From positions 1 to 17,605 of the IMG/VR virus record IMGVR_UViG_2675903413_000004: DNA of 17,605 nt; one strand, given 5' to 3'. Positions within the stretch are counted from its first letter, which is position 1, and each line of letters opens with the position of its first letter. Below are positions 424 through 2,487 of the stretch, in pieces. The notes under the pieces are model-generated. The model was not told the origin of the DNA, did not search any database, and saw only the letters and a program-made list of their open reading frames with translations. The stretch is from a virus. Taxonomy: Duplodnaviria > Heunggongvirae > Uroviricota > Caudoviricetes. The position numbers were made by a program, and so were the translations under genes.

Positions 424-984
424 TCAGGCAATGATGTTCTGGTACTTGCTCCGGGTCTGTCCGGCCTTTGTCGCCGTCCGGGTAAACGCTCCGGCATTGG
501 TTGGCGTACCAACACTGGGGTGCGAATGACTCGCACATTGCTGCGCCAGCTCTGCCAGTATCTGGATCAGCAGCTGCGTGTTGTCTGCAATCTGGCTGTC
601 TGTAACCCGAACCAGAATCACATCCCAGTCGATATCCGGTTGCCGTTCTAACAGCTCCACATAACCAATTCCCAGCCGTTCAAAGATATTGATAAACCCC
701 TCTACTGAACCGGCATCCCGCGCATTCACGAAGGCAAAAGCCACGCGTTTGCGAAACAGGGTCAACGGTTCACCATCAAAGCGGGTGATATCCCGGTCAT
801 AAGCCAGCAGATTCAGTAATGCCGGTGTACACGTCAGCGGATCAAACTGGTTCATTGGCCAGGTAACCCAGCCGTAAACCTCAGCCCAGAACCGCCGCGC
901 CGTGTTCAGCAATTTCCCCGGTTCGCCTTTATTCATCCAGGAAGGCAAGACCATCCCGGCCAGCTTTTTCATGAACTCATTCAT
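424..984 (-). CDS. Baseplate/tail protein, P2 gpI / Mu gp48-like
   Basis: ORF track 424..990 (TTG start); in-frame ATGs at 984 and 972. N-terminal region (FDPLTCTPALLNLLAYD...) resembles the conserved DP..C.P.LL.LA pattern of P2 gpI-type tail proteins as recalled; follows a baseplate-J-like gene. Start is uncertain. Confidence 0.5.
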   Translation of the reverse strand: MNEFMKKLAGMVLPSWMNKGEPGKLLNTARRFWAEVYGWVTWPMNQFDPLTCTPALLNLLAYDRDITRFDGEPLTLFRKRVAFAFVNARDAGSVEGFINIFERLGIGYVELLERQPDIDWDVILVRVTDSQIADNTQLLIQILAELAQQCASHSHPSVGTPTNAGAFTRTATKAGQTRSKYQNIIA

Positions 985-2161
985 TCTCAATATTCACCGT
1001 CAGTGATTTCAGACGCGGCACGCTCAGTTCACTGGTAATGTCTCCCAGCGAAAATGTCAGTGATTCCGTCTGCGCAAAGGTTTTATGAATTTCCCGCCCC
1101 AGTTGCGAAAAGGAAAACCGTGAATATGGCCACGTCTTTCTGACGTCATAATCAGCATTTTCACGAAAGGCACAGCGGATCATGTTCTCAATGCCGCCCT
1201 TCAGCGTTTTCACCTCTTCGTCACTGAAGTTGTTTAGATTTTTGACATAAACAGTGACGGCCAGATCGTGAAGCGTTTCCGGCATGGGATAACACTGCAT
1301 ATCATCACCGTGCCCGTGATGTCCCAGCGTGTTGATATAGTCATTCACCGCATCCACGAACGGCGCTGATGCCACCCCACTGTCCAGTAATAAAAAGGCG
1401 TTGGCTGTTCCTGGCCCCCTCGGTGCTTCATGCTCAAAGAAAATCCGATCTATACTCAGCCCGGCAACACTGGCGATCATTGAGCGATAGACCGCATCAG
1501 TGTGGTAATTCCCCACAAGATTAAACTGATTGCGGCAACGCTCGCGCAGTTCATCATCACTTTCCTCGTCAGCCCCCGGTACGGTCAGCCAGTTTTCCTC
1601 ACTGACCACATGGCTAATACCACTGACCGCCACCGGCAGAATGCGGTAATATCCAGGCGCAAGGTTATACGCGCCCCCGGTGCCGGTGGCTTTCACCGGC
1701 AGTAATGCGCTGGCCGCACCGGAAGCGATCACCACATCCTCAGTGGTGGCCAGCTCATAAACTCGCCCGTTAATGCGTTCTGTCTGGATAACCGTCCCGG
1801 CTTTCACCGTCACCACAGCTTTTGCATCTTCTTTGAAGAAGCGGATCACCCCATGTGCAGCGCTCGCCGGTTTTGCCGTGACGTTCACCGCCCAGGCCAG
1901 CAGACGCAACATGCTCCCGCTGGCTGTGGCCACAAACATATTGGCCAGCACGGTTAACACCAGAACGTCTTTAAGCCACATCACCGGGGCAGTCACAATG
2001 GCGGTGATTAATCGCCAGAACGGTGACATTCGGGATGTATTGGTGATAATTCCCTCATCTGCTGCAATTGCATTGAAGCGTTCCCGCACTTCGGCTTCCG
2101 TTACCGGCATACCGCTGTCTTTCACCACTTCTTCAAAATCAACCTGCGGTTTTTCCGTCAT
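977..2161 (-). CDS. Baseplate assembly protein, Baseplate_J family (P2 gpJ / Mu gp47-like)
   Basis: ORF track 977..2215 starts at GTG; the ATG at 2161 forms an ATGA overlap with the upstream stop and has a GGTGG SD. Segments MFVATASGSMLRLLAWAVNVTAKPASAAHGVIRF and EESDDELRERCRNQF...VGNYHTDAVY match the characteristic baseplate-J pattern as recalled. Confidence 0.6.
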   Translation of the reverse strand: MTEKPQVDFEEVVKDSGMPVTEAEVRERFNAIAADEGIITNTSRMSPFWRLITAIVTAPVMWLKDVLVLTVLANMFVATASGSMLRLLAWAVNVTAKPASAAHGVIRFFKEDAKAVVTVKAGTVIQTERINGRVYELATTEDVVIASGAASALLPVKATGTGGAYNLAPGYYRILPVAVSGISHVVSEENWLTVPGADEESDDELRERCRNQFNLVGNYHTDAVYRSMIASVAGLSIDRIFFEHEAPRGPGTANAFLLLDSGVASAPFVDAVNDYINTLGHHGHGDDMQCYPMPETLHDLAVTVYVKNLNNFSDEEVKTLKGGIENMIRCAFRENADYDVRKTWPYSRFSFSQLGREIHKTFAQTESLTFSLGDITSELSVPRLKSLTVNIENE

Positions 2162-2487
2162 AAATCCACCTGCGCAGAGATCCCGCCAAAATCGTATGTA
2201 CTCGCGGTTACCCACAGCCGCTTCTGACTTTCTTCACTGATTTCCACCGTACCCGGCACAATGCGTTCATCATCTTCAATCAGTAATTCCATGCGGGTAA
2301 AAATATCCGCTCTCATTGTCGGGCTACGTTCGGCGATTAATTCCGTCGCTAACCCGCTTTCAATAATGGAATGAATAATGTCCTGCCCGATACTTTTTCG
2401 GTTATTACATAATTCAGGTTCATTACCGGTATTCAGAACAAAGTCACCGCCCTGAATCAGCAAGTCGATATAGAGAACATTACTCAT
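2158..2487 (-). CDS. Small tail/baseplate protein between tape measure and baseplate J (possibly gp25/W-like wedge); function uncertain
   Basis: ORF track 2158..2505. The ATG at 2487 has an AGGAG SD 8 nt upstream and an ATGA overlap with the tape-measure stop (2484-2487). Product about 109 aa. Assignment is by position only. Confidence 0.4.
   Translation of the reverse strand: MSNVLYIDLLIQGGDFVLNTGNEPELCNNRKSIGQDIIHSIIESGLATELIAERSPTMRADIFTRMELLIEDDERIVPGTVEISEESQKRLWVTASTYDFGGISAQVDL

Follow-up and report, generated by a model that had tools for sequence, protein, structure and literature searches.

The stretch of DNA analyzed here (the window, 17,605 bp) carries a phage tail module whose genes all lie on the minus strand. 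See Table 1 for the coordinates of all features. A first-pass annotation had counted only three genes between the tape measure gene and a terminator, and open reading frames together with profile searches confirmed both the count and the coordinates. The tape measure protein is 100% identical to its counterpart in the prophage of Escherichia coli XYEH3934 (NZ_CP110978.1; L001), our reference for direct blastn comparison, and the Baseplate_J protein is full length and the same as WP_040080367.1 in L001. The third gene had been called gpI-like. This holds for the gpI-like residues 1–142 with which it begins, but the product is not a normal gpI, as the ORF is a deletion chimera that closes with the end of a spike protein. 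The Tail_P2_I profile scores 20.2 bits on this ORF, slightly short of the 20.6 cut-off. The terminator consists of a 7-bp GC-rich stem and a T tract. It occupies the same position in L001, where it follows the gene for a 566-aa hub-spike protein and marks where the late operon natively ends. The 110-aa ORF past the terminator lies outside the tail module.

Table 1. Features of the window and, beneath each deletion junction, the sequence present in the intact prophage and lost here
Feature	Position	Strand	Details
Secreted-type protein (moron)	1–333	−	110 aa; phrog_13843, E 3.4e-47; hypothetical protein WP_000787654.1
Intrinsic terminator	412–394	−	AGCCCGC-AAAAC-GCGGGTT then TTGTCGTTTT; dG −15 kcal/mol, z −3.1
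gpI-like ORF (chimeric)	424–984 (TTG start at 990)	−	186 aa; phrog_1228 "tail protein", E 3e-69
Deletion 1 junction	559/560		5,135 bp lost (L001 3561–8695); blastn and base-by-base comparison
Lost in deletion 1: end of gpI-like gene			last 53 codons of the 195-aa gene
Lost in deletion 1: tail fiber			525 aa; Phage_tail_fib, E 4e-32; Collar
Lost in deletion 1: fiber assembly protein			195 aa; Caudo_TAP, E 2e-35
Lost in deletion 1: 241-aa protein			phrog_1677
Lost in deletion 1: 181-aa protein			PF25759 "HP1 ORF34 baseplate complex protein", E 4e-54
Lost in deletion 1: most of the 566-aa protein			residues 1–522; phrog_2258 "baseplate protein", E 5e-279
Baseplate J/gp6-like wedge protein	977–2161 (alternative start 2215)	−	394 aa, intact; Baseplate_J, E 5.5e-29; phrog_6, E 6e-62
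DUF2590 protein	2158–2487	−	109 aa, intact; DUF2590, E 1.3e-45
Tape measure	2484–4451	−	655 aa, intact; PhageMin_Tail, E 1.7e-22; phrog_28, E 7.6e-100
gpR-like tail terminator remnant	8301–8558	−	C-terminal 84–85 of 168 aa, without start; tblastn 100%, residues 84–168
Deletion 2 junction	8557/8558		4,955 bp lost (L001 16696–21650); TC microhomology
Lost in deletion 2: start of gpR-like gene			N-terminal 84 codons of the tail terminator gene
Lost in deletion 2: head genes			head completion gene, small terminase, P2-family major capsid, gpO scaffold
Lost in deletion 2: intergenic region			161 bp, divergent
Lost in deletion 2: most of large terminase			residues 1–469
Large terminase remnant	8558–8926	+	C-terminal 122 of 591 aa; tblastn 100%, residues 470–591
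attR core	17397–17407	+	TATAATATAGC; mntR-mntS intergenic region, downstream of the integrase gene; single att copy in the window

The conserved baseplate core of contractile tails comprises gp25/W, gp6/J, gp7-53/I, the gp27-gp5 hub-spike, and fibers. The window holds a gp25/gpW-like sheath initiator and a gp6/gpJ-like wedge protein. A full-length gpI-like partner is absent, with only residues 1–142 of 195 left, and of the central hub and spike only a C-terminal remnant of 44–47 aa is found. The tail fiber and its assembly chaperone, both present in L001 and in L004, are missing from the window. Among the called genes of the window, the Phage_GPD, Phage_base_V, and fiber Pfam families had no match. 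Furthermore, tblastn of the fiber, chaperone, and hub/spike proteins of the intact relative against the window returned nothing beyond 47 aa left over from the spike C-terminus (567–427), in agreement with the earlier claim that hub, spike, fiber, and chaperone genes are absent.

In complete E. coli genomes, the window is found as three pieces spanning 27.7 kb, at 100% identity bar one mismatch. Direct blastn resolves it into L001 positions 3001–3560, 8696–16695, and 21651–30699, with one mismatch in 17.6 kb. The window is therefore an otherwise identical prophage minus two internal segments. The intact prophage is found in XYEH3934 (NZ_CP110978.1, positions 3049100–3078020) and six other complete genomes, and the element measures 28.9 kb in these intact hosts and about 18.8 kb here. 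From the gpI-like gene to the same terminator, the intact prophage carries the rest of the gpI-like gene and five more genes, which encode the fiber, the Caudo_TAP chaperone, the 241-aa protein, HP1_ORF34, and the 566-aa hub-spike. The first-pass annotation had proposed that distal tail genes were lost or are supplied elsewhere and had called for a comparison with intact relatives; that comparison showed the loss directly, as a prophage 100% identical in the tail region carries these genes before the same terminator. It establishes both deletions, their junctions, the chimera, and the identity of the lost genes.

At deletion 1, a TA microhomology is common to both parents. When its two ends are compared with the parent proteins, the 186-aa ORF proves to be gpI-like residues 1–142 followed, in frame, by the C-terminal 44 residues of the 566-aa protein. 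This structure explains the split PHROG matches of the ORF, with phrog_1228 at residues 6–152 and phrog_2258 at residues 134–188 (numbered from the TTG at 990). Deletion 2 falls in the head module and truncates a gene on either side. The intact gpR-like protein matches P2_Phage_GpR (E 9e-23), and Terminase_6C was matched on the called 102-aa ORF of the large terminase remnant. In the intact operon, every intergenic gap above 20 bp that precedes the retained tail genes falls within deletion 2, so that the retained tail and lysis genes probably have no late promoter. Judging from this gene packing, late transcription has probably been lost as well. The gene set of a viable phage is incomplete in the window, which is without gpO, gpN, gpM, gpL, the 5′ half of gpR, and most of the large terminase, and also without the fiber, chaperone, ORF34, and hub-spike genes.

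A candidate att repeat had also been placed beside the terminator. The empty site of K-12 matches both prophage flanks, with an 11-bp overlap that is the att core TATAATATAGC. In the source contig, attL is found some 1.4 kb to the left of where the window starts, past the 110-aa gene and a hexapeptide acetyltransferase gene. We found no second att copy in the window and none near the terminator, and a repeat finder gave chance-level short repeats only. With the core present in the window only at attR, and attL outside, the repeat by the terminator is therefore not an att site.

The 109-aa DUF2590 protein, previously considered a possible hub or spike, is neither, and is instead a gp25/gpW-like sheath initiator. 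The DUF2590 alignment comprised 84 sequences of diverse members. The AlphaFold2 model of the protein is confident (pLDDT 95.9), and we count its fold among the points that are demonstrated. Searching the DUF2590 profile against PDB sequences gave sheath initiators as top matches, which were weak (E 0.23). An hhalign comparison of this profile with P2 gpW returned nothing significant, and the assignment therefore rests on fold and profiles. It follows that the surviving trio represents proximal wedge genes only.

We assign the 566-aa protein of the intact relatives as the predicted hub-spike of the lineage, with a VgrG/gp5-like architecture. The C-terminal beta-helix of T4 gp5 matches residues 412–507 (E 2e-10), and Gp5_C exceeds its cut-off, while Phage_base_V falls just short of its own. 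Matches to VgrG OB domains are weak, as are the VgrG matches that were all NCBIfam returned. Close homologues are named "baseplate assembly protein V" in some database sources. The structural model is of low confidence (mean pLDDT 48.6, TM about 0.15), with a shallow alignment and a single chain of a trimer. All top Foldseek matches of this model are VgrG, central spike, or Mu gp44-type hub proteins, with E values down to 1.5e-8; as the model is poor, they serve as supporting evidence only. The gp27-like hub part is tentative and comes from this same poor model. Near the C-terminus, an HxH motif (H534, H536) is invariant in alignment A2, and it may resemble the metal-binding motif at the apex of P2 gpV-type spikes. 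In a BLASTP comparison, the 566-aa protein had no similarity to P2 gpD or gpV, so the assignment rests on fold, profiles, and gp5 repeats. Separate gpD and gpV genes had been expected at their P2 positions. In the HP1/ESSI-2-type lineage, a single VgrG-like protein serves as both hub and spike, and its gene lies past the fiber genes, where the operon ends; absence from the P2 positions is therefore normal.

The classified relatives of the window are Escherichia phages ESSI2_ev015, ev040, and ev129 (Peduoviridae, Quadragintavirus), at 95.5–96.6% identity. ESSI2_ev015 is 96.6% identical across 83% of the window, and its gene order is the same. In these relatives, the order is tape measure, DUF2590, Baseplate_J, tail protein, tail fiber, fiber assembly protein, an unnamed gene, a hypothetical protein, and a "baseplate protein." The retained parts of the window have 95.5–96.6% nucleotide identity to ESSI2_ev015/ev040 and 100% to the XYEH3934 prophage. 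Gene order is shared with all of these from the tail completion gene to the gpI-like gene, and the XYEH3934-type prophage is integrated at the same site as the window, between mntR and mntS. Unlike them, the window is without 5,135 bp and 4,955 bp and has the chimeric gpI-spike ORF.

The module is also like that of Haemophilus phage HP1, as the tube (Phage_HP1_Orf24), sheath (DUF2586), and DUF2590 families match strongly and the hub-spike of HP1-type modules is at the distal end of the operon, past the fiber genes. Unlike an HP1-type module, only the proximal part is left in the window, with HP1_ORF34 and the downstream hub-spike deleted. The baseplate genes of phage P2 are V-W-J-I-H-G plus U-D. 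The intact relative shares with P2 the order W-J-I, then fiber H and chaperone G, and further likenesses are the gp25/gpW fold of the 109-aa protein, the Baseplate_J domain, and the marginal Tail_P2_I match. In contrast to P2, this lineage has no sequence similarity to gpV, gpD, or gpW, and its lysis genes lie between the tube and chaperone genes. Hub and spike also form one VgrG-like protein at the operon end, whereas in P2, V precedes W and D follows the tape measure. A literature search on DUF2590, the HP1 baseplate, and Quadragintavirus found nothing relevant.

The best explanation for these observations, with a probability of about 0.9, is that the window is a recently degraded E. coli prophage of the HP1/ESSI-2 type (Peduoviridae, Quadragintavirus-like), integrated between mntR and mntS. 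The normal late operon of this lineage begins with scaffold, capsid, small terminase, head completion, tail terminator, tail completion, sheath, and tube genes. It continues with lysis genes, chaperone, tape measure, sheath initiator (DUF2590), and the gpJ-like and gpI-like genes, and ends with tail fiber, fiber assembly protein, the 241-aa protein, HP1_ORF34, the VgrG-like hub-spike, and the terminator. Two deletions, each with 2-bp microhomology and probably formed by illegitimate recombination, cut this operon. Deletion 1 placed codon 142 of the gpI-like gene directly before the final 44 hub-spike codons, with the reading frame kept, and took the fiber, its chaperone, two baseplate-associated genes, and almost the whole hub-spike. 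Deletion 2 took the N-terminal half of the tail terminator and all head genes of that strand, together with the putative late-promoter region between the divergent genes and the greater part of the large terminase. What remains as a "baseplate" is the sheath initiator, the gp6/J-like wedge protein, and a chimeric gpI that has lost its own C-terminus. Such a three-gene baseplate should be unable to nucleate a tail because there is no hub-spike, there are no fibers, and both gpI and the tail terminator are truncated. From its gene content, we infer that the locus is a non-functional remnant rather than a minimal or unusual baseplate.

Like other cryptic or defective E. coli prophages formed by internal deletion, the element has truncated essential genes and clean microhomology junctions, and has kept its regulatory and integration genes. 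What sets it apart is that its decay is very young (one mismatch in 17.6 kb relative to intact copies), so that the exact deletion events can be reconstructed. The polarity is deletion and not insertion, because the four genes cut short at the junctions are whole and syntenic in isolated or classified phages.

The evidence for the deletions comes from one assembly, recorded for two samples. Only a look-up of the exact chimeric protein led to this source, NCBI assembly GCA_001269265.1, where the protein is encoded on contig CXXP01000012.1 (379 kb; region 233450–254010). The contig carries both deletions with the same neighbors and matches the window at 100% identity along 10,984 bp. Queries of 301 bp spanning either junction had no match covering at least 80% of the query in 5,426 complete E. 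coli genomes. Exact 31-mers of both junctions were absent from a viral contig collection, and those of junction 1 also from metagenome and species-representative genome contigs. Uniqueness to a single draft assembly would be expected if the source genome held the intact prophage and the assembly had simply omitted two 5-kb segments. We consider this very unlikely, as the two junctions are separate and clean, share 2 bp each, and contain no collapsible repeats, and as assemblers stop contigs at ambiguities rather than omit unique sequence. The length of the contig and its record for two samples also argue against an artifact, as do comparable deletion chimeras in other assemblies. In these, capsid residues 1–158 are fused to the hub, the 241-aa protein is fused to the hub, or the hub has an inverted C-terminal segment. 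Internal deletion or rearrangement is therefore recurrent in this prophage family.

We also weighed whether the three genes could be a complete module, in a P2-like group that naturally goes without separate hub, spike, and fiber genes. The lack of any Phage_GPD match anywhere, and of P2-style gpV/gpD genes at P2 positions even in intact relatives, would fit this idea. However, intact relatives that are 100% identical in the tail region encode a fiber, chaperone, HP1_ORF34, and a VgrG/gp5-like hub-spike past gpI, and the gpI ORF of the window is itself truncated and fused to the spike tail. The idea is thereby refuted by comparison with L001 and L004, leaving it with practically no probability, and the refuting condition set earlier, that related complete phages are naturally without separate hub and fiber genes, fails because L001 and ESSI2_ev015 have both. 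A domesticated tailocin-like device, or an element complemented in trans, would have shed its head genes and kept the rest for the host or in dependence on a helper. The head genes are indeed gone, and the sheath, tube, tape measure, lysis cassette, integrase, repressor, replication gene, and portal are all intact ORFs. We nevertheless find this very improbable, since the tail terminator is truncated, hub-spike and fibers are missing, the predicted late promoter region is deleted, and the form is known from one assembly only. The retained ORFs are near-100% identical to intact prophages, and they are intact because the deletions are recent, not from demonstrable selection. An R-type tailocin in particular was rejected, as head genes are absent but the N-terminus of the tail terminator, the hub-spike, and the fibers are missing too. 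Moreover, supply in trans would not rescue the phage, as the head module is broken by deletion 2.

The window does keep an integrase, a repressor, a cox-like gene, a replication endonuclease, an ogr-like activator, a portal, and a lysis cassette, and presumably cos is retained in the doubly deleted element. There is a slim chance that the 18.8-kb element is a satellite in the making rather than inert debris. If so, it would be expected to excise, replicate, and be packaged or mobilized by an intact helper of the Quadragintavirus type, which would provide the capsid, terminase, and distal tail parts.

The recently degraded prophage that we favor is an ordinary case of very recent prophage decay, of a kind already known, and it raises no new question. 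For annotation, the 186-aa "tail protein" is a deletion chimera and not a new baseplate protein, and the locus should be annotated as a defective prophage. Two minor gains concern the wider family. The HP1/ESSI-2-type operon puts the hub-spike past the fiber genes, and proteins of the DUF2590 family can be labeled gp25-like sheath initiators.

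Through the second deletion the window has lost the head genes and the late promoter region, along with half of the gene for the tail terminator and the greater part of the large terminase; gene stubs lying head-to-head are left at the junction. Homologues of the 566-aa VgrG/gp5-like hub-spike protein (L001:3424-5124 in the intact prophage locus of E. coli XYEH3934) include three differing chimeras from other assemblies (P0301, P0303 and P0297). Therefore, internal deletions and rearrangements are recurrent in this prophage family.

The divergent scaffold/terminase intergenic region (L001 20150-20200), which the window has lost through deletion, contains the inverted repeat GAACAGTTCGGT-N12-ACCGAACAGAC. 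The P2-type motif TGT-N12-ACA was not evident in this region, and the inverted repeat may be the binding site for the lineage's Ogr-like late activator.

Directly upstream of the tape measure gene lies an overlapping chaperone/DUF6890 gene pair, a layout similar to the P2 E/E' frameshift pair. The Pfam DUF2590 (phrog_1237) protein, labelled "unknown function," was confidently assigned a gp25/gpW-like fold, and the family could be renamed on this basis.

Feature coordinates in the window and the intact locus (L001)
Feature	Window	L001	Remark
Deletion 2 and flanking gene remnants	8301-8926, junction 8557/8558		4,955 bp gone
Hub-spike chimera, other assembly			capsid residues 1-158 joined to hub
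Hub-spike chimera, other assembly			residues 1-173 of 241-aa protein joined to hub
Hub-spike chimera, other assembly			hub with C-terminus derived from antisense
Phage_TAC_10 chaperone gene (85 aa), then overlapping DUF6890 ORF (64 aa)	4448-4896		
DUF2590 / phrog_1237 protein	2158-2487		sheath-initiator fold
Cargo genes between late-operon terminator and attL	1-393	1675-3333	
att core TATAATATAGC	17397-17407	1585-1595 and 30491-30501	

One of the cargo genes has a promoter-like site of its own and encodes a 110-aa protein with a signal peptide (phrog_13843); the other encodes a "serine acetyltransferase" with hexapeptide repeats. The classified relative ESSI2_ev015 (Quadragintavirus) also carries an acetyltransferase. 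Both cargo genes are possible lysogenic conversion genes. The att core lies between mntR and mntS, within the palindromic region upstream of mntS. Integration cuts mntS off from mntR as well as from the sequence normally found upstream of it, with a possible effect on the control of mntS by MntR.
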